From contig CP120458.1 in the NCBI GenBank assembly GCA_034226945.1, positions 1,054,001-1,118,000 on the forward strand: a stretch of DNA of 64,000 nucleotides, written 5' to 3'. A model generated the notes under the pieces. It saw nothing but the letters and a program-made list of their open reading frames with translations, was not told the DNA's origin and ran no database searches. The position numbers and the translations under genes were made by a program. Below, piece by piece: positions 3,011 to 10,501 of this stretch (position 1 is the first letter of the stretch; every line of letters starts with the position of its first letter). Source of the DNA: Picochlorum sp. SENEW3 (lineage: Eukaryota).

Positions 3011-3409
3011 ACTCAACTCACGTCAACTGTCTTTACTTTTCCTTTTACAGCTCTTTCTTCATTCCTGCAGAGAGCACAATTTTCATGCAGAACAGAAGGA
3101 TGAGCTGCTTGTTTTTTTAAAGATACAATGTCAATTTTCAATAGAATTCCTTTGTAATCTCATCGCACCCAATGAATGGCCATTGCTTCAGCTCAAGCAA
3201 CTACTTATACGAGGAATCCATGATCCTGATGGCACAAGATCGTGACTCTATATCTATACAGGGCATGCATGCCGGCATGATCATGATGTGTGTGATGAGA
3301 TCACTCCTGCTGAAAAAAAAAAAAGCATCGCATGCACAGATCCAGATCAATAGCATCGGACCACCCATTAAGTCATTTATATTACTACATTGTTGCGTTT
3401 TCAGGCACC

Positions 3410-4657
3410 ATGAACTTATCTTCACGCACAGGGCAGGTCCTAGGACCACAACGTACAAGTAGAAGCCTGGTTGGAATACGAACCACACACGCACGTCAAC
3501 CTCACCACCAAGGCCGCTGGAGGGGGTCTTCTATTGCAAAACTCTACTCCATTCATAGGCATGTGTGTTGTGCGGCAGAGAAGGAAGGGAATAGGGACAT
3601 AGAGAGTAGAAGAGCTGGGCGAGCCACGTATCGACCTTCAACGTTTACTGAATTGATCGATGATGCGGTCGGATCGATTGTATATGGTATACAAGATGGA
3701 TTAAATCGTGTTGAAGTCGAGTTTCCTGCAGTGAGTGACGTGGATGGATACAAGGGGTCGTCAGATTTGTACATTGACACCAATATCCAGCTGGCTATTG
3801 CTGCTGCGAGAAAGATATTCTCTACAACGGCAATGAAGGTGCATCTTTTGGTTCCAGACGAGCCAGAGTATAGGAGAGCTTACAAATTGTGCGTGCATTA
3901 GATGATTTTGCTTGTACATCTGGGGGCAACCTGGTGTCGTTGCAAGGATTGATCCATTTGTCGTGTTTTCAGGTTCAAACAAGCTTTAGAGACATCAGAA
4001 GGCGTAACATTAGGACATTGTATGGAAGGAAAGAGCACGTACAAGTATGTGGATGCGAACATCCAAAACTTTGTATCCTCTCTGACATCAAAGTTCTCAA
4101 TGGGTGAATCCTACCCGGATCCATGTGAAAAAGCTGGAGACGCGGATATGTACATTGCTGTCAACTGTAGTACTATAGAGTTGGCAGATTTAGAGGATTA
4201 TGCGAGCGAGAAGGTAAAGGAGAAACCTTTAGTTACCTGGAATATGGAACTGGACAACCTTCGGGCTGACCTGGGACTCTTGGGCTTTCCTCCAAAGGAT
4301 TTGCAGTACAGATTTCTCTCGAAATTTAAATCCGTCTTTTACATTAGGCAGAGAGATTACTCAAAAACGGTTGCAGTTGCTCCATTCATCATCAACTACT
4401 CTGGAGCGCTCTTCAGGGAGTACCCGGGGCCCTGGCAGGTTATGCTTCGGCAGGATAATGGTGTTTATGCGTGCGTCGCAGAAGAAACTGAGAGGAGATA
4501 TCCACTTGGAGAGTTCAAGGCCGAGCTGACCAAAGCCATGGGATTGGATGTGGAGCCTGAGGGATCCACTGCAGCATTCTTGAGGACAGGATACAAGACC
4601 ACCACCTGGTGGGAGGATGATATTGACCGTGAAGAGTCAAATAGCTGGAGAACATAG
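3410..4657 (+). CDS. LPA3: LOW PSII ACCUMULATION 3-like protein (DUF1995), plastid; intron 3889-3972
   Basis: Motifs [32 protein letters not shown] and [17 protein letters not shown]; the GTGCGT...TTTCAG intron joins two ORFs in frame (YKL|FKQALE). Confidence 0.88.
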
Positions 4658-4717
4658 TATATTATTTTTAACTTAATAGTAGTAATAAAGGTTGAGTTGT
4701 CTGTGTATAACACGCGA

Positions 4718-7471
4718 TTAGAACCTCTTCCACCCATCATCTCCACGTGGGATGATTTCTGGCACTGACTTCTTGAGCCTGTACCAGACCACAGGGTCCA
4801 CGCCCAGGGCAATCATAACACCAAATTGCTGGCACCTCTCTGGCATAGCCCAGATAAATGCACGGATGTATGTGACACGCTGAGCATGCATGGGCAGGTT
4901 CTGCACCACAGCCGGGAGAGCCTCCCACCAGCCTGCTGGAGGTGCATCATCCCAACAGTCGTTCATAATCTTCTTTTGAACAGGACCAGAGACGTATCGG
5001 CGCACCACAGGCTTGATATTATCTTCGACATAGTCGTAATTCTCAAATGCTTGCTTCACAAATGATGTGATTGCATCATGCAATGCTGATGTTGCTCCAC
5101 TCTGAATCATATCTGTAATCCTATTTTGCTCCTCAATCATTGCGTCATTCATTTTCAACGCCATATTAGGGTGACCAGGGAAGAATGTGGCAATTTGAGG
5201 GAAGCATGTATCTCTCTTCAGGCCCGAGTAGAAGTCATTCACAGATGCAAATGTTGACCACTGAGATTTCAGGGCAGACAAGAGCCTTGTATTGTTTGGA
5301 CTCGATGCTAAATTCTCTGAGGTCGTGTGGATTTTCTCCAACATGGCACGAAGAGCTTCCTGTGCCAGTGGAAGCTGACTCATTGGCCCCCACTTGTGCT
5401 CTGGAATAAACACCTTGAGACGAGCAATTCCAGCATATGTTCTCAATGTGAGCACCACAGTGGAGAGCGTTGCGAGTGCAATCAAACACGTCGCAAGAAC
5501 CTTTGTCAATGCTGTTTGCACCGTCATATCATACAGAACGGCTGCCCATGCAAGAGCAGCGAGGGGGAACCCAAGGGCCCACATCTGCATGAAGAATTTC
5601 TCACTCCACAAAAAGTGACGCCATGCCATCCATGCCATGATGAGACCCATTGATATCGCACTATAGAATAGAGCCTGAGATATTGCATCCATGAAAAAGC
5701 CTCCTTGCAATTGAGCCCAGGCAATAGATGCAACAGCAGGTGGTGCAATCCATATGACAGCAAACATCCTCATACGAGGATCTGCATTGTGTCCGAGAGC
5801 AAATCTTGGGAATAATGCAGCGAAAAGGACAACCCACATGATGGTGGCAAATCCGAAGAAAAGGTAGCAAACTTGTCTGTAAGATTCGTCAATAATTGGT
5901 CCCAAAACTGCATAGATGTACAGGCCAACAGGCGCCATCAACCAAGCACCATTCATATGACCATCGTGGCGCAGCGTCGACAACCAATTACCCACAATGA
6001 TCACTGCAATCAGGGTTCCAGTCGAGCTTCCAATCCAGAAGAGAACACGGGCCAAAGGTGTCGAGTATGTATTCCATGCAAGGAAGGCATAAACCCCAAA
6101 GGACATGGAAGGAACTGAGAAAGCATTATTCATGGCTGGATGCATCCATTCTGAACGCACTTTGCGTGGATAATAAATCATCTTCAAAACAAATGGACCA
6201 GTCATGATGACGGTATGGATGAGCGACAAGAGTGTGATAATTTGCCAGACAAGGTTTGGTGCAAGATACCGTGGCGACAGCGACATGAACTTGTACAGTG
6301 CCGCGAGGGCGACAACACCAATCACAGAGGACTGGAACCCGATTTTAGAGTGCTTGATGATGGCAAAATCTTCGCGCTCCCAATCATCAGTCTTCCCTGT
6401 CTTGTAATGCAGATCAATCTTTGTGCTTCTTGTGTGATTTTCAAATTCATATGTAACCCTCTTGGGCACCTCTGGATTCACAACCTTGGTCCACTCGTTC
6501 CAAGTATACTTTGTTTCTGGCAGTGAATTGATGTGCACCATGTAAATTGTGTCCGGAATGATTTTGAACCTGATGGCATATCCAAACACCCAGCATCCAG
6601 CACAGAAGTTGAGGAAACTCTCCAGCCAGGCAAAGAAAGCGAGAATCGCCGCAAACACTGTCGACGCCTCCCACTGCTTTGTAAATTGCAAAATCATAAT
6701 GATTGCTGAAAACAGCACACCAACGCACACAGCAAATTGCTTTGGAGGACCAGCTCCCCATACTGGCCCAGTGCTCCTTCCAAACACTGCTGGACCTACA
6801 AGGTCCCAGACAGCCACAACAAACATAGCAAGCGATCCAACAGGAGAGATCCCTGCACCCCCATACAAACGCAAGCAGAAATCTGTCAAAAGACCCACAG
6901 AAAGCCACTTCACAGACCTCTTCTCCTGATAGGACAAGGCAGCAATGATGACACAGATCACAAACACGAAGAAACCTGTCCATCGAATCACCCGCCCATC
7001 CACAGTATTCGGGAACTCGAACAACGCCCCAATCACATGGGGTGCCTCCTTGTCCACCCCTACCAACGGCACCTGGGCCTCCTTGGCATCACCCTCCTCC
7101 ACATCTCCACTCCCAACAAGCTTGTCAAACTCCCCACTGGCAATGATCGCCTTGGTCTCATTACACCCTCCAACCAGATTACCATTGATGAAGACCATCG
7201 GAACAGTCTTCTGCTGAGCATACTCCCTGAGCTCCTCCAATACCGTAGATCCTGGAATATCCCCACCCATCTTGTCCATCTTGTAGTACCGAAAGTGAAC
7301 TCCCATGCTCATCATGGTTCTGGTCACTTCAATACAAAAAGGACATGTAGATCGACCAAAAACAACAACAGTGTCGGCATTGACTGCCGTCTCAATCTTA
7401 TCCCGCACAGTCTCCCCATCGATACTTGCGAAATCTTCAACATCGATCCCAATCTTCACAGGATCAGCCAT
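4718..7471 (-). CDS. Multidomain fusion: glutaredoxin (CPFC) + DUF4395-like + SLAC1/TehA (TDT) channel + degenerate hemerythrin-like domain
   Basis: One uninterrupted ORF of about 917 aa from the probable ATG at 7471. Grx: CPFC...TVPMVFINGNLVGG. DUF4395-like: FPNTVD...GPPKQFA...LESFLNFCAGC. TDT channel: YPRKVRSEWMHP, WLMAPVG, IAPPAV, WALGFP. Helical C-terminus. Confidence 0.85.
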   Translation of the reverse strand: MADPVKIGIDVEDFASIDGETVRDKIETAVNADTVVVFGRSTCPFCIEVTRTMMSMGVHFRYYKMDKMGGDIPGSTVLEELREYAQQKTVPMVFINGNLVGGCNETKAIIASGEFDKLVGSGDVEEGDAKEAQVPLVGVDKEAPHVIGALFEFPNTVDGRVIRWTGFFVFVICVIIAALSYQEKRSVKWLSVGLLTDFCLRLYGGAGISPVGSLAMFVVAVWDLVGPAVFGRSTGPVWGAGPPKQFAVCVGVLFSAIIMILQFTKQWEASTVFAAILAFFAWLESFLNFCAGCWVFGYAIRFKIIPDTIYMVHINSLPETKYTWNEWTKVVNPEVPKRVTYEFENHTRSTKIDLHYKTGKTDDWEREDFAIIKHSKIGFQSSVIGVVALAALYKFMSLSPRYLAPNLVWQIITLLSLIHTVIMTGPFVLKMIYYPRKVRSEWMHPAMNNAFSVPSMSFGVYAFLAWNTYSTPLARVLFWIGSSTGTLIAVIIVGNWLSTLRHDGHMNGAWLMAPVGLYIYAVLGPIIDESYRQVCYLFFGFATIMWVVLFAALFPRFALGHNADPRMRMFAVIWIAPPAVASIAWAQLQGGFFMDAISQALFYSAISMGLIMAWMAWRHFLWSEKFFMQMWALGFPLAALAWAAVLYDMTVQTALTKVLATCLIALATLSTVVLTLRTYAGIARLKVFIPEHKWGPMSQLPLAQEALRAMLEKIHTTSENLASSPNNTRLLSALKSQWSTFASVNDFYSGLKRDTCFPQIATFFPGHPNMALKMNDAMIEEQNRITDMIQSGATSALHDAITSFVKQAFENYDYVEDNIKPVVRRYVSGPVQKKIMNDCWDDAPPAGWWEALPAVVQNLPMHAQRVTYIRAFIWAMPERCQQFGVMIALGVDPVVWYRLKKSVPEIIPRGDDGWKRF

Positions 7472-7678
7472 GATGTTGGTTATACCCTCGTACGTCGCAG
7501 TATAAACGTATAACCCTAGGGGAAATGCATGCAGAGTTTTTATTATGCCCTGTTTTGTCCAAGGGATCAGACAAGATGTCGAGGCAACTGATTCCATACA
7601 CGTCATTCATGACGAGAGTTTAAACTCGGTTTTTAATTTCTATTTAAGGATTTTATTCGTTACACACAATAGTGTAGT

Positions 7679-8563
7679 CTACAATGCCTCCCATATGAAT
7701 GGTATGCCATCATCTCTCCATTCCACTCTATCCTCACAGATGGCTGCAATACACCTAGGGTATAAGATATGTTCCTGTTTCAACACTCGAGACGCCAGCG
7801 TCTCTGCTGTATCCGTTGGATACACGGGAACAACTGCCTGGGAGAGGATGGGTCCTGTGTCATATTCCTCATCAATAAAGTGCACAGTGGGCCCCGAGAA
7901 CCGAGCTCCCGATCTAATAACCGCCTCGTGCACTCGAGACCCATAAAACCCTTTACCTCCAAATGATGGGAGGAGTCCTGGGTGTATGTTGACAATGGCC
8001 TTTGGAAATGTATCCACCACAGTCCCCGGGATGAGTTTCATGTATCCCGCGAGGATGATGAGGTTGACATTGAATTTCTCTTTCAGTTGATCTATTGCCA
8101 GCTCTTCTGCAGTCGAGACTGACTCTGAGGTAGAAGAAGAAGAAGACTGAGATTTTCGGGGTGGGTACACCAGCACTGGGATACCGTGCTGTCTCGCATA
8201 TTCTGCCCCCCCACAACTCGGTGCATTCGTAACAACTACAACTACCTCTCCTCCTCGAATCTCACCCTGACGAATGGCATGGTGAATGGCTTTAAAGTTG
8301 GAACCACCTCCTGACACAAACACTGCCAACCGCTTCTTGCCATCATCTTTTCTTTCTGCTCTCCCTCGTTGACCACTGCTAGTACTAGTAGTAGATGATG
8401 AGGATGCTACTGCTATCAACGATGCTCTATGGATGCATCGTTCCATTCTAGTGCATGGCAACCATGCATGTCGTCGTATGCCATTGCTACCAATCCTCCG
8501 AGGTCCTGCCACCTGATGGCTTGTTTTCTCCACAGATCTCGGTCGATGGAGTTTTAGTGACAT
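7679..8563 (-). CDS. purN: Phosphoribosylglycinamide formyltransferase with organellar transit peptide
   Basis: Motifs LAVFVSGGGSNF, LAGYMK, NIHPGLLPSFGG, SGPTVHF and YDTGPI. Confidence 0.96.
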   Translation of the reverse strand: MSLKLHRPRSVEKTSHQVAGPRRIGSNGIRRHAWLPCTRMERCIHRASLIAVASSSSTTSTSSGQRGRAERKDDGKKRLAVFVSGGGSNFKAIHHAIRQGEIRGGEVVVVVTNAPSCGGAEYARQHGIPVLVYPPRKSQSSSSSTSESVSTAEELAIDQLKEKFNVNLIILAGYMKLIPGTVVDTFPKAIVNIHPGLLPSFGGKGFYGSRVHEAVIRSGARFSGPTVHFIDEEYDTGPILSQAVVPVYPTDTAETLASRVLKQEHILYPRCIAAICEDRVEWRDDGIPFIWEAL

Positions 8564-8755
8564 CTTTATCTATAGTACAATCGTTGTGGCACCCAATCAT
8601 GGGCTTTTGAGTTGAGAGATGCTGTCCAGTCCAGACATCGGGTCTCCATCCATGGCATGGTGTCCAAATGCCTGAGAATGTCCCTCATACTTGAATGATC
8701 TGATGCTGTTACATTGATCAAAGTACACAAAATACATTATGTGTACAATGTGCGG

Positions 8756-10501
8756 ATGAAATATGCGATGCACATTGTCCAGCAGCACCGAGGAGGGCAC
8801 CCTTGTGGGTTGTCGTATTGTCAACCTCATAGAATTCTTGGCAGCCCACTTCGAGTGTGTGGGACAAACAAGAGAGCCATAGATTGTTTCAGAAATAAAA
8901 GAGGGATTGTGTGCTTCTCTGTCGGCAGAGAAGAAGACGAGACACGTGACTATGAGAGGCAAGAGGGAGGACAAGGGACTGGTACAAAAAAATCGTTTCA
9001 GGAGACTGAGTTTGCACTGGTATTGGCAGCTTGCTCCATTGGTTTACTGACAGGATTGGGTGTTGTATTGTTCAACGATGCGGTTGGAAGTATTCGTCAT
9101 GTTGTCTGGGGGGATGTGTCTGGTGTGACTGGGAGAGAGTTGCTGGCGGTAGAGGGACATGAGTGGGCTCTGAGATTGGCGCTGCCTCCTGTGATGGCAG
9201 GGGGGGTGGTCGGATTGATAACGCTCGCTTCATCTCCTCGGGCTTTGTCCGTCAAGTCCAAGGGCAAGGCATCATGGTTTGAGAGGCTTTCTCGTGTTGG
9301 CAGTTCCATAGTGACATTGGGTGGCGGGGCATCACTTGGGCCCGAGGGTCCCTCGGTGGAAATTGGTAGGGATGTTGCAGAGTACTTTGTGGATACATTG
9401 AAGAGCGGCAAGAAACATGTGGCATCTTTTGTTGCTGCTGGGTCTGGGGCAGGTGTTGCCGCTGGATTTAATGCACCAATCTCTGGTGTATTTTTTGCTG
9501 TTGAGACTGTACTTCAGCGGGAAGAGTATTTGATAGGAAGGACGAAAGTGTTACAGGAGAAGGAGTCGTCAGGGTTGACGATTGCCATGGTCTTGCTTGC
9601 AGCTGTCCTTGCAGCTGTAGTCTCTCAGGCAGGTTTGGGTAGTTCTCCTGCATTCAAAGTTCCTGATTACTCTCTGGAGAGTTTTGGGGAGCTACCACTG
9701 TATTTTTTGTTTGGGAGTGTATGCGGTATCGTGTCATCTGTATTTTTGTATAGCATTCGTGTCGCTAGGGATACAATTCAAATATGGAGGCCGAAAATAG
9801 CAAATGAGGCAGTAGCAACGATAGCATTGCCTCTGTTTGGTGGCCTAACGACAGGAATCATTGCGCTGTGGTATCCAGAGATACTATACCAGGGTTTCGA
9901 TAATGTGAACTCTGTCTTGCGATCCAGTGGAGACTATGATGCATCTATTCTCATGCAGATTGTTGTCCTGAAAATTATTGCAACCAGTGTTTGTAGAGGC
10001 AGTGGACTCAAAGGGGGCCTGTACGCCCCAAGCATTTTCATCGGAGCTTCCCTAGGATCTGCATATGGACTGATATGTCATCAATTGGCAGATGCTTTCG
10101 GTATTGCTGTCTCACCGCCTCAAGCATATGCATTGGTTGGGGTTGGAGCGATATTGGCATCTGCATGCAATGTTCCCCTGACCTCAATTCTCCTCTTATT
10201 TGAACTCACTAGAGATTACTTGATCATCCTTCCAGCGTTGGCTGCGGTAGGTATTAGCTACTGGGTGAGCTCGAATTGGGATCTGCAAGGGGTGAAGCAT
10301 CAGTCTAATCCTGCCACCATGGATCCAGATGTGTCGGATGCATCAGGTCGTCATGTGGATGGTGAGGATTTGGTGATCCATGTTGACGATGGATTGACAA
10401 TCTCGCAAATACTGGCGCTTTGTGAAGCACAGAATAAACGTAATGTCGTAGTTTTGAACGAGGAAAACAATGTTTCTGCTACAATTCATAAAACAGAATG
10501 A
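8756..10501 (+). CDS. CLC chloride channel/transporter, plant CLC-e/f (prokaryote-like) group, probable transit peptide
   Basis: Motifs SLGPEGPSVEIG, AGFNAPISGVFFAVE, GGLYAPSIFIGA and VPLTSILLLFELTRDY. Start codon uncertain (8756 or 8768). Confidence 0.92.
   Translation: MKYAMHIVQQHRGGHPCGLSYCQPHRILGSPLRVCGTNKRAIDCFRNKRGIVCFSVGREEDETRDYERQEGGQGTGTKKSFQETEFALVLAACSIGLLTGLGVVLFNDAVGSIRHVVWGDVSGVTGRELLAVEGHEWALRLALPPVMAGGVVGLITLASSPRALSVKSKGKASWFERLSRVGSSIVTLGGGASLGPEGPSVEIGRDVAEYFVDTLKSGKKHVASFVAAGSGAGVAAGFNAPISGVFFAVETVLQREEYLIGRTKVLQEKESSGLTIAMVLLAAVLAAVVSQAGLGSSPAFKVPDYSLESFGELPLYFLFGSVCGIVSSVFLYSIRVARDTIQIWRPKIANEAVATIALPLFGGLTTGIIALWYPEILYQGFDNVNSVLRSSGDYDASILMQIVVLKIIATSVCRGSGLKGGLYAPSIFIGASLGSAYGLICHQLADAFGIAVSPPQAYALVGVGAILASACNVPLTSILLLFELTRDYLIILPALAAVGISYWVSSNWDLQGVKHQSNPATMDPDVSDASGRHVDGEDLVIHVDDGLTISQILALCEAQNKRNVVVLNEENNVSATIHKTE

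Follow-up and report, generated by a model that had tools for sequence, protein, structure and literature searches.

In a 64,000-nucleotide stretch of the genome of Picochlorum sp. SENEW3 (GCA_034226945.1, contig CP120458.1, positions 1,054,001–1,118,000; hereafter the window, whose numbering is used throughout), we found a complete, intronless coding sequence on the minus strand (4718–7471) that joins, in this order, a dithiol glutaredoxin (Grx), a DUF4395 membrane module, a TDT/SLAC1-type anion pore, and a helical domain apparently derived from hemerythrin. The same domain order recurs in several eukaryotic supergroups, and the CxGC cysteine pair of the DUF4395 module is nearly invariant. 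We propose, with a confidence slightly short of even, that the protein moves anions, probably sulfur oxyanions, as a channel or exporter under thiol control, the fused Grx servicing a reactive site formed by the DUF4395 dithiol. The architecture would represent a mode of control over SLAC1-type pores that is widely conserved and so far unreported, its function being put forward here as a proposal.

A four-module reading frame and its distribution

The frame encodes 917 amino acids followed by a stop codon at 4718–4720. Its features, all on the minus strand, are as follows.

7472–7521, minus: probable 5′ untranslated region, ending with an RNA-like contig and devoid of ATG (weak, the RNA status of run X3 being a guess)
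4718–7471, minus: complete intronless coding sequence with the Grx, DUF4395, TDT/SLAC1, and hemerythrin-derived modules
7172–7369, minus: class-I dithiol Grx domain (Pfam, NCBIfam GRX_euk, Foldseek)
7334–7345, minus: Grx active site CPFC (C43/C46)
7199–7207, minus: glutathione (GSH)-site motif TVP
7163–7171, minus: GSH-site motif GGC(N)
7004–7111, minus: acidic linker of about 36 residues (121–156) with low model confidence, joining Grx to the first membrane helix
6575–7003, minus: DUF4395 module with four transmembrane helices and invariant D197/R201, E284, GPPKQFA, and CAGC
6731–6751, minus: GPPKQFA of the DUF4395 module
6593–6604, minus: CAGC (C290/C293) at the predicted cytoplasmic end of the last DUF4395 helix, within LESFLNFCAGC (6593–6625)
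6344–6568, minus: conserved linker of about 75 residues from DUF4395 to the pore, including IYMVH (6533–6547)
5438–6337, minus: ten-helix TDT/SLAC1-type pore (Pfam, Foldseek, phmmer), predicted to conduct anions
5564–5581, minus: WALGFP, with F635 at the SLAC1/SLAH gate position
4721–5389, minus: hemerythrin-derived helical domain plus a conserved extension of about 100 residues, assigned through phmmer relatives with PF01814; ligand columns occupied by Q, Y, L, K, N, N, and V
5192–5206, 4946–4960, and 4826–4843, minus: clade-specific cysteine motifs CFPQI, DCWDD, and PERCQQ, respectively

Pfam recovered Grx (PF00462; E 2.3e-12, 47.3 bits against a cutoff of 22.9), DUF4395 (PF14340; E 6.5e-20, 72.2 against 24.5 bits, profile positions 1–128 of 130), and SLAC1 (PF03595; E 2.1e-31, 109.8 against 27.9 bits, profile positions 6–330 of 331), all above gathering scores. 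The four-module intronless frame of the original prediction, which had been read from the letters alone, was borne out by the profiles for DUF4395 and SLAC1, and its motif coordinates (CPFC, TVP, GG, CAGC within LESFLNFCAGC, and WALGFP) were all exact.

The longest version of the frame extends uninterrupted from 4718 to 7606 on the minus strand (962 amino acids). The ATG at 7471 is the likely start codon, because a public gene model (P0002, differing from the window protein at two residues) and the aligned homologues with complete N-termini begin there. An RNA-like contig (run X3, record 16; 3,686 nucleotides, high depth), from a run whose RNA status is a guess, was colinear with 4300–7521 with zero joints; it ends about 50 nucleotides upstream of this ATG and has no ATG within 7521–7471. 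The 120 nucleotides beyond its end were uncovered in X3 and covered by a probable DNA run, and the in-frame ATGs at 7606 and 7597 lie upstream of, and outside, the probable 5′ untranslated region. The RNA libraries X9 and X12 covered the gene in pieces only.

Relatives were collected by an exhaustive phmmer search with the C-terminal domain against 1.84 billion representatives (E ≤0.001), which matched 221 cluster representatives with E values down to 1e-28. Among the 58 covered by a Pfam scan, 19 carry Grx, DUF4395, SLAC1, and Hemerythrin (PF01814), 4 have the first three with no hemerythrin call, 11 have DUF4395, SLAC1, and Hemerythrin, and one has Rdx (PF10262) instead of Grx together with the other three domains. 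The others comprise DUF4395 plus SLAC1 (3/58), SLAC1 plus Hemerythrin (10/58, mostly fragments), SLAC1 alone (4/58), and Hemerythrin alone (6/58). DUF4395 precedes SLAC1 in every relative that has both, and Grx, if present, precedes DUF4395.

The 90%-identity cluster of the window protein holds Picochlorum sp. BPE23 (‘hypothetical protein’) and P. renovo, in whose annotation the orthologous locus is split into P0345 and P0346 (311 and 284 amino acids). Outside this trebouxiophyte genus, the same domain order was found in the green algae Nannochloris, Micractinium, Ostreobium, Tetrabaena (‘Glutaredoxin-C6’), and a pedinophyte, in the red alga Porphyridium (annotated ‘SLAH3’), in the brown alga Ectocarpus, in the ichthyosporeans Pirum and Creolimax, in a record with the prefix ‘Clim’, and in the kinetoplastid Papus (P0082), a transcriptome record for which prey contamination is possible. 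In the choanoflagellate Salpingoeca macrocollata (P0174), the Grx slot is occupied by Rdx, a selenoprotein W/T/H-like thioredoxin fold, and the other three domains are kept. These sequences indicate that the four-domain architecture is ancient and found widely among eukaryotes; its presence in several supergroups speaks against both an algal curiosity and an obvious recent horizontal gene transfer. Several relatives are transcriptome-derived open reading frames (ORFs), with all four domains on a single ORF in P0053 (MMETSP) and P0082, so that one mRNA carries all modules.

The two short models at the P. renovo locus and the absence of a called Grx in 12 of the 27 close homologues would fit an annotation or assembly artefact, in which two or more adjacent genes are read as one. 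Against this stand the uninterrupted 2.75-kb frame with a colinear contig across it, the same order in transcriptome-derived ORFs of distant eukaryotes, and strong conservation through all linkers, and we regard an artefact as so improbable that it can practically be set aside. Several close homologues have aberrant N-termini with xRFC in place of CPFC, a hint that where relatives carry introns, the gene models may be wrong around the Grx exon.

No published description of the fusion architecture was found in the literature searched, which did not include subscription journals, and within that literature the statement that no such protein has been characterised holds. A term search within a paper on hemerythrin evolution (PMC4919030) likewise gave no match. 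DUF4395 itself appeared in passing mentions only, in two papers, with no characterised member in the literature searched.

The glutaredoxin, the pore, and the DUF4395 dithiol

By profile and fold, the N-terminal domain is a regular class-I dithiol Grx with predicted GSH-dependent activity; Foldseek matched it to plant and human glutaredoxins (template-modelling (TM) scores 0.8–0.9, root-mean-square deviations 1.1–1.7 Å), and CPFC, TVP, and GGCN are conserved within the clade of the window protein. Across the family, the active site varies (CPFC, CGFC, CPYC, CPFS, CPFT, and others): among 25 distant members with an aligned Grx, the first cysteine is present in all, and the second in 21, being Ser or Thr in the other 4. 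Monothiol deglutathionylation requires just the nucleophilic cysteine, and the universality of the first cysteine alone fits a reaction of this type. The Grx-containing N-terminal part (150 residues) has no signal peptide, which would place Grx on the cytoplasmic side. In the model, the 36-residue tether (predicted local distance difference test (pLDDT) <50) could in principle allow Grx to reach the membrane surface.

The full-length AlphaFold model (15 sequences; pLDDT 73.9, predicted TM score (pTM) 0.62) is of moderate confidence, and within it the pore matched SLAC1, SLAH, and TehA structures in Foldseek with TM scores of 0.70–0.87 (target-normalised), E values of 4e-7 to 1e-5, and about 300–350 aligned columns. 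Sequence searches with phmmer against solved structures gave SLAH1 (4e-15) and SLAH3 (1e-14) within a range of 4e-15 to 2e-9 that includes SLAC1; TehA was absent among the matches at E ≤0.01. F635 of WALGFP aligns with the Phe of WAYSFP in SLAH1, WAYTFP in SLAH3, and WSYTFP in SLAC1 (7en0, where its counterpart is residue 460 of chain 7en0_A by count), and among 67 full-length members (26 close and 41 distant) used for all residue counts of this section, it is kept in 26/26 close and 40/41 distant ones. A passage of PMC3509319 assigns the pore-gate role to F450 of AtSLAC1 and F262 of TehA. The claim that the protein retains the gate Phe was therefore confirmed by alignment and by conservation in 66 of the 67 members. 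The NCBIfam TehA and tdt models also matched (E 1.6e-16 and 8.6e-20), with scores far under the curated cutoffs (TIGR00816, 71.3 versus 237.25 bits; NF008032, 60.5 versus 342 bits), which puts the pore outside the curated bacterial TehA/tdt subfamilies as judged by these profiles. Collectively, profile, fold, and gate residue assign the protein to the TDT/SLAC1 superfamily, with anion conductance predicted. Other modules stand where plant SLAC1/SLAH have their kinase-regulated termini, the N-terminus being Grx plus DUF4395, and the protein is therefore not classed as an orthologue of these channels.

These pore matches bear on a rival explanation, namely a SLAC/SLAH-type channel of general use for chloride, nitrate, or organic acids that serves osmotic, pH, or nitrogen homeostasis, in which Grx and the hemerythrin-derived domain would substitute redox or oxygen control for kinase control and DUF4395 would be an anchor or scaffold. 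It agrees with SLAH1, SLAH3, and SLAC1 being the best solved-structure sequence matches and with the conserved gate Phe, and passages of two papers place the control of plant SLAC1 in its cytoplasmic N- and C-terminal regions (PMC10645844, PMC11260165), where the extra modules sit here; bacterial hemerythrin domains, moreover, are described in part of another as O2 and redox sensors (PMC9388753). It leaves unexplained, however, the near-invariance of the DUF4395 CxGC across bacteria and eukaryotes and the pairing of stand-alone DUF4395 with thioredoxin, rhodanese, and TauE, as described below. We consider such a general channel unlikely, though far from negligible.

The reading that we prefer, a thiol-regulated channel or exporter, turns on the DUF4395 module. 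C290 and C293 of its CAGC are present in 26/26 close members and in 40/41 and 39/41 distant members, respectively, and E284 is present in 26/26 and 36/41; GPPKQFA is found in 26/26 close members, with exact PKQFA in 34/41 distant ones. The CxGC pair is invariant also in the aligned bacterial DUF4395 proteins. An AlphaFold model of DUF4395 alone (pLDDT 88, pTM 0.81) has four long hydrophobic helices; a fifth helix, third in order, which is hydrophobic in the algal protein, has an amphipathic and charged character in the bacterial ones. Mean numbers of Lys plus Arg in 14 bacterial homologues were 5.4 in the central loop (including the amphipathic helix) and 3.9 in the C-terminal tail, as against 1.3 in the N-terminal tail and 0.2 and 0.1 in the first and second short loops. 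From this distribution we infer by the positive-inside rule a module with four transmembrane helices, both termini inside, and a cytoplasmic CxGC. An odd number of passes, which would place Grx outside, was rejected on the amphipathic and charged character of the third helix in bacteria, the Lys plus Arg distribution, and the lack of a signal peptide. The CxGC pair, GPPKQFA, the D/R pair, and the N-terminal F-x-FP motif would lie together at the cytoplasmic surface in this topology. The membrane orientation of SLAC1 is known, with the pore N-terminus and the C-terminal side in the cytoplasm; by analogy with it, and with ten pore helices, the pore N-terminus and the C-terminal domain of the fusion would also be cytoplasmic. 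CPFC and CAGC, which the original prediction wanted within reach of each other, are thus predicted on the same membrane side.

No solved relative of DUF4395 emerged: Foldseek with the module alone gave zero matches at E ≤0.001, and the best VIA-wide match had a Z of 9.4, among generic helical bundles for which about 13 is expected. The VKOR and DsbB families were absent among the Foldseek and VIA-wide matches, in searches whose best match was to generic bundles, and we claim no relation to either family or to any other.

A profile search found stand-alone bacterial DUF4395 proteins of about 160–180 amino acids, the named ones being from Actinomycetota and Chloroflexi; a single-protein word-indexed search for short relatives had returned only fragments of the eukaryotic family. 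Over its full length, the algal module shows 31–42% identity to the 14 aligned bacterial copies and shares with them F-x-FP, R, GPPK(R/Q)FA, LE, and C-x-G-C. Just past the last helix, all 14 carry a second CxxC, whose columns are occupied by Y-x-x-H in the eukaryotic fusions (Y310 and H313 of IYMVH in the window protein); rhodanese-linked bacterial copies also lack the second CxxC, so that it is not universal in the family.

The gene neighbours of stand-alone DUF4395 were examined in two sets. Set 1 was the best 80 of 591 confirmed loci in a species-genome collection, mostly metagenome-assembled genomes of the Acidimicrobiia type, with 10-kb segments around each. A TauE/SafE-family permease (PF01925) occurs in 16 of these 80 loci, directly upstream on the same strand at a distance of 25–60 nucleotides in 15 and divergent in one; no locus had TauE solely elsewhere in its 10-kb segment. 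In the sulfane-sulfur circuits of Streptomyces, which also contain PDO and rhodanese, TauE is treated as the probable exporter of sulfite (PMC7533328). The 80 loci belong to one subclade, and a sedolisin-like gene lies downstream of the TauE pair in 12, the pair occurring also without sedolisin. Set 2 came from a PF14340 search of 201 evenly drawn Actinomycetota genomes, of which 71 were positive, including five flagged unpublished; neighbours were counted at the 66 published sites. Three of 14 control genomes (Thermus thermophilus, Corynebacterium glutamicum, and Lactococcus lactis) were positive for DUF4395. In set 2, a tandem rhodanese lies directly downstream on the same strand at 6 of the 66 sites (gaps of −37 to +22 nucleotides), a CxPC thioredoxin directly downstream at 3 of 38 scanned sites (gaps of −30 to +7 nucleotides), and an ArsR-type HTH_20 regulator directly upstream at 8 of 66. 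Cysteine dioxygenase (set 1), DsrE, and globin were single-case neighbours. Bacteria thus pair DUF4395 by gene with a thioredoxin-fold oxidoreductase, sulfur transferases, and an anion permease, and the eukaryotic fusion joins a thioredoxin-fold oxidoreductase and an anion pore to the same module. DUF4395 would thereby gain a first functional context, that of a cytoplasm-facing dithiol serviced by thioredoxin-fold proteins and linked to sulfur-anion traffic.

Some of these loci have further features. In L102, L112, L118, L130, and L132, long ORFs upstream of DUF4395 combine an ArsR-type HTH_20 N-terminal part with a sub-cutoff TusA-like C-terminal part, and may represent a sulfur-sensing regulator family; in L102, L112, and L118, DUF4395 is followed by an acyl-CoA dehydrogenase gene. 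In L080 (2632–4965, plus strand) and L056 (3679–4947, plus strand), the TauE domain ends long frames (778 and 423 amino acids) directly upstream of DUF4395, which may be either fusions that carry a further N-terminal part or just long frames that stay open upstream in high-GC DNA. Among the recurrent same-strand neighbours upstream, a third is an ORF (259–283 amino acids; L038, L047, and L058) that forms a BLAST cluster of its own with no Pfam or NCBIfam match.

The same neighbourhoods and residues offer two other explanations. One is a reduce-and-export detoxifier, in which Grx and the DUF4395 dithiol would reduce or bind a metalloid or chalcogen oxyanion (arsenate, selenite, or tellurite) and the resulting product would leave through the TDT pore, in the manner of Grx-coupled arsenate reductases with efflux pumps and of TehA-linked tellurite resistance. 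Vicinal dithiols bind As(III), Se, and Te species, the nearest NCBIfam models are ‘tellurite-resistance/dicarboxylate transporter’ and TehA, and LMWPc/ArsC-type phosphatase genes are convergent to DUF4395 in 4 of 34 loci, in addition to the ArsR-type regulators upstream at 8 of 66 sites of set 2. However, the LMWPc genes sit on the opposite strand, ArsR-family regulators sense sulfane sulfur too, the NCBIfam scores fall far under their cutoffs (71 versus 237 bits and 60 versus 342), and a rare-metalloid role is unlikely for a family so widely kept in eukaryotes, which together leave this explanation quite unlikely. The other takes Grx–DUF4395 to be a self-contained thiol or sulfur relay, or a metal-binding unit, acting independently of the pore and fused to it for co-localisation or co-expression, with CxGC plus CxxC in bacteria and CxGC plus Y310/H313 in eukaryotes as candidate ligands. 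Bacterial DUF4395 is indeed usually stand-alone, with soluble enzymes as well as a permease as partners, and Tyr and His, both potential metal ligands, take the place of the second bacterial CxxC in correlated fashion; yet H313 is kept in just 15 of the 41 distant members, the order of Grx before DUF4395 before SLAC1 is constant, and the linker between DUF4395 and the pore is highly conserved. We regard a pore-independent unit as improbable.

The C-terminal domain: loss of iron ligands and gain of cysteines

The last 223 residues gave no significant Pfam match and no PF01814 even at E ≤10, and matched PDB sequences at chance level only; a Pfam match to JHBP (E 0.004, under the cutoff) was dismissed. 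Most of the 221 representatives matched by this domain are, by contrast, called Hemerythrin (PF01814) by Pfam, and the full-length model has four long helices at residues 696–826. The fourth module is thus assigned through its relatives as hemerythrin-derived, followed by a conserved extension of about 100 residues.

The canonical ligand columns (H…HxxxE…H…HxxxE) are occupied in the window protein by Q10, Y54, L57, K58, N81, N117, and V121, that is, 0/7 are kept. When 90 family members covering the region were compared, 57 of the 67 distant ones retained 6–7 of the 7 ligand-column residues, whereas in the clade of the window protein (23 members) 20 keep none and 3 keep one. Judged from the loss of all seven canonical residues, the C-terminal domain here cannot be a di-iron sensor. 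The ‘hemerythrin-like’ fourth domain of the original prediction was therefore right as to homology, given the Pfam-positive relatives, and is to be corrected for the loss of the iron ligands.

The clade has instead three cysteines, C756, C839, and C880, present in 22 of its 23 members. The corresponding positions in the 67 distant members are mostly aliphatic or Ala, with Cys at the second in 11 and at the third in 3. C756 lies on the same helix face as the former ligand columns 54 and 58, one and two turns after them. Presumably, this clade turned an iron-based sensor into a thiol-based one, as the residue pattern suggests. In Micractinium-type members (P0014, P0019 of Micractinium conductrix, and P0026), a second complete Grx (CPFC) is inserted in a loop of the C-terminal domain, where it adjoins the clade-specific cysteines (alignment A1, columns about 940–1090). 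The replacement of seven ligand residues by a cysteine triad in one clade, and the second Grx in a sub-clade, constitute a natural experiment in the change of sensor chemistry.

Proposed mechanism, neighbouring genes, and comparison with known systems

In the proposed mechanism, reactivity would reside in C290/C293, the dithiol lying at the inner surface of the membrane. This pair would be modified either by an oxidant or by some thiol-reactive sulfur species (to a disulfide or by S-glutathionylation, persulfide, or S-sulfonate formation), this modification would alter pore gating or substrate hand-over, and the tethered Grx would reset the pair through its N-terminal Cys and glutathione. The C-terminal domain would provide a second input. 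In most lineages it would be a di-iron domain that senses O2, NO, iron, or redox state; the Picochlorum/Nannochloris/Chlorella-type clade would have an iron-free version whose three conserved cysteines form another thiol switch. The reactive dithiol, its resetting by Grx, and its coupling to the pore are suggested by the fusion, the bacterial operons, and residue conservation. The pore would most likely pass sulfite, thiosulfate, or another sulfur oxyanion, or else a chalcogen analogue; here the proposal is least certain, and we hold it as a tentative assignment well below even. The TDT family includes the fungal sulfite pump Ssu1 and the tellurite-linked TehA, and the substrate is suggested by this kinship and by the partner families TauE and rhodanese. 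Since Picochlorum species are fast-growing production strains, a valve of this kind for sulfur or anions, under redox control, could bear on their stress tolerance.

The idea that Grx acts on the membrane CxGC and couples the thiol state to export of an anion or oxyanion was already part of the original prediction. It gained support from the predicted cytoplasmic location of CxGC, its conservation, and the bacterial pairing with thioredoxin, rhodanese, TauE, and ArsR, and it may apply. Of that prediction as a whole, the four-module architecture, the identity of each domain, the pore Phe, and the seeming absence of an earlier description stood, and the ‘hemerythrin-like’ label was corrected in that this protein has lost the iron ligands.

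Several points weigh against the thiol-regulated sulfur-oxyanion channel. The entire mechanism is built on sequences, models, and gene neighbours, the full-length model (pLDDT 73.9, pTM 0.62) being of moderate confidence. The closest solved relatives of the pore by sequence are the plant chloride/nitrate channels SLAH1 and SLAH3. DUF4395 has no recognisable solved relative, so that its chemistry is deduced from residues and neighbours. The bacterial neighbour sites all come from one phylum; TauE is adjacent at 1 of the 66 sites of set 2, the unbiased sample, and its pairs in set 1 are not independent events because they have the sedolisin-like gene downstream in 12 as shared synteny. About 49 of the 66 sites of set 2 have no sulfur- or thiol-related neighbour, and the TusA-like C-termini in five of the 8 ArsR ORFs score 22.8–25.9 bits against 28.6, under the Pfam cutoff. 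Since the bacterial partners are unrelated to one another (a permease and soluble enzymes), DUF4395 may also act on its own rather than as a pore gate.

A broader and rather unlikely extension of the same proposal would make DUF4395 a universal thiol-based module for handling sulfur anions, whose whole circuit early eukaryotes fused into a release valve for reactive sulfur. CxGC would then react directly with sulfite, thiosulfate, or persulfide (by sulfitolysis or persulfidation) and be reset by a thioredoxin-fold partner; bacteria would couple DUF4395 by operon to TauE exporters, rhodaneses, and thioredoxins, and eukaryotes would hold Grx, DUF4395, the anion pore, and an O2- or iron-sensing hemerythrin in one protein, a valve reading both thiol state and oxygen. 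If this were true, the plant SLAC channels would have their missing algal relatives in this family, and in the Picochlorum clade an iron sensor would have been rebuilt as a cysteine switch.

On the plus strand of the window, consecutive ORFs at 3332–3901 and 4022–4657 match DUF1995 profile positions 1–74 and 82–189 and look like one gene with an intron of about 120 nucleotides. This gene is convergent on the channel gene with about 60 nucleotides between the stop codons, and the X3 contig crosses both. About 1.2 kb separate the start of the SLAC1-type gene from a gene for a ClC-type voltage-gated chloride channel (8714–10501, plus strand; PF00654, E 6e-71), and a formyltransferase gene (7679–8563, minus strand; PF00551) lies in this interval. 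The presence of two unrelated anion-channel genes within 6 kb may be chance in a eukaryote.

Among known systems, VKOR–thioredoxin fusions and DsbD are membrane thiol relays fused to thioredoxin-fold domains. These and YeeE/TusA resemble the fusion in combining a membrane cysteine pair with a thioredoxin-fold or sulfur-carrier partner, and YeeE-like SoxT is presented in part of one paper as a sulfur importer (PMC11582611); the likeness is an analogy only, since DUF4395 has no specific fold match to them and its dithiol is predicted to be cytoplasmic rather than periplasmic. Stand-alone bacterial DUF4395 has a thioredoxin-fold oxidoreductase and an anion permease as partners, as does the fusion, by operon in one case and by fusion in the other; the bacterial partners, however, are separate genes, their TauE/TSUP permease is unrelated to TDT, and the second C-terminal CxxC of the 14 aligned copies gives way to Y-x-x-H in the fusion.

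The C-terminal module has the same layout as GSTH of the green lineage, described in a passage of PMC4138524 as a glutathione-dependent Cys-active thiol transferase combined with a hemerythrin domain, which precedes a tail of about 100 unannotated residues. The GSTH proteins are soluble and have neither pore nor DUF4395, and a GST domain was found in 0 of 21 mid-length hemerythrin relatives, which leaves GSTH as an analogy. With HHE-domain proteins (PF01814), the family has in common the H/H/H/E/H/H/E residues, 6–7 of which are kept in most distant members (57/67), in contrast to the window protein, where zero ligands and no Pfam call are accompanied by three clade-specific cysteines instead.

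The pore compares with two groups. Bacterial TehA has the same fold (3m71 and related entries, TM scores 0.80–0.87) but is a bare pore without fused modules, and the fusion scores far under the TehA family cutoffs. Plant SLAC1, SLAH1, and SLAH3 have the ten-helix pore fold in common with the fusion (TM score about 0.85), carry the gate Phe in the same motif, and bear their regulatory modules likewise at the cytoplasmic N- and C-termini. In the plant channels, according to the passages on SLAC1 control cited above, regulation is by kinase phosphorylation of disordered termini, whereas the fusion has folded Grx, DUF4395, and hemerythrin-derived modules there. A passage of Dreyer et al. (2012; PMC3509319) states that the algal TDTs found were only Mae1-like and that those chlorophyte relatives standing nearer to the SLAC ancestor ‘still need to be identified’; the present family is a candidate for these relatives. 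If the proposal is true, SLAC1/TehA-type pores would have a second mode of gating, in which folded thiol or metal sensor domains act instead of kinases.

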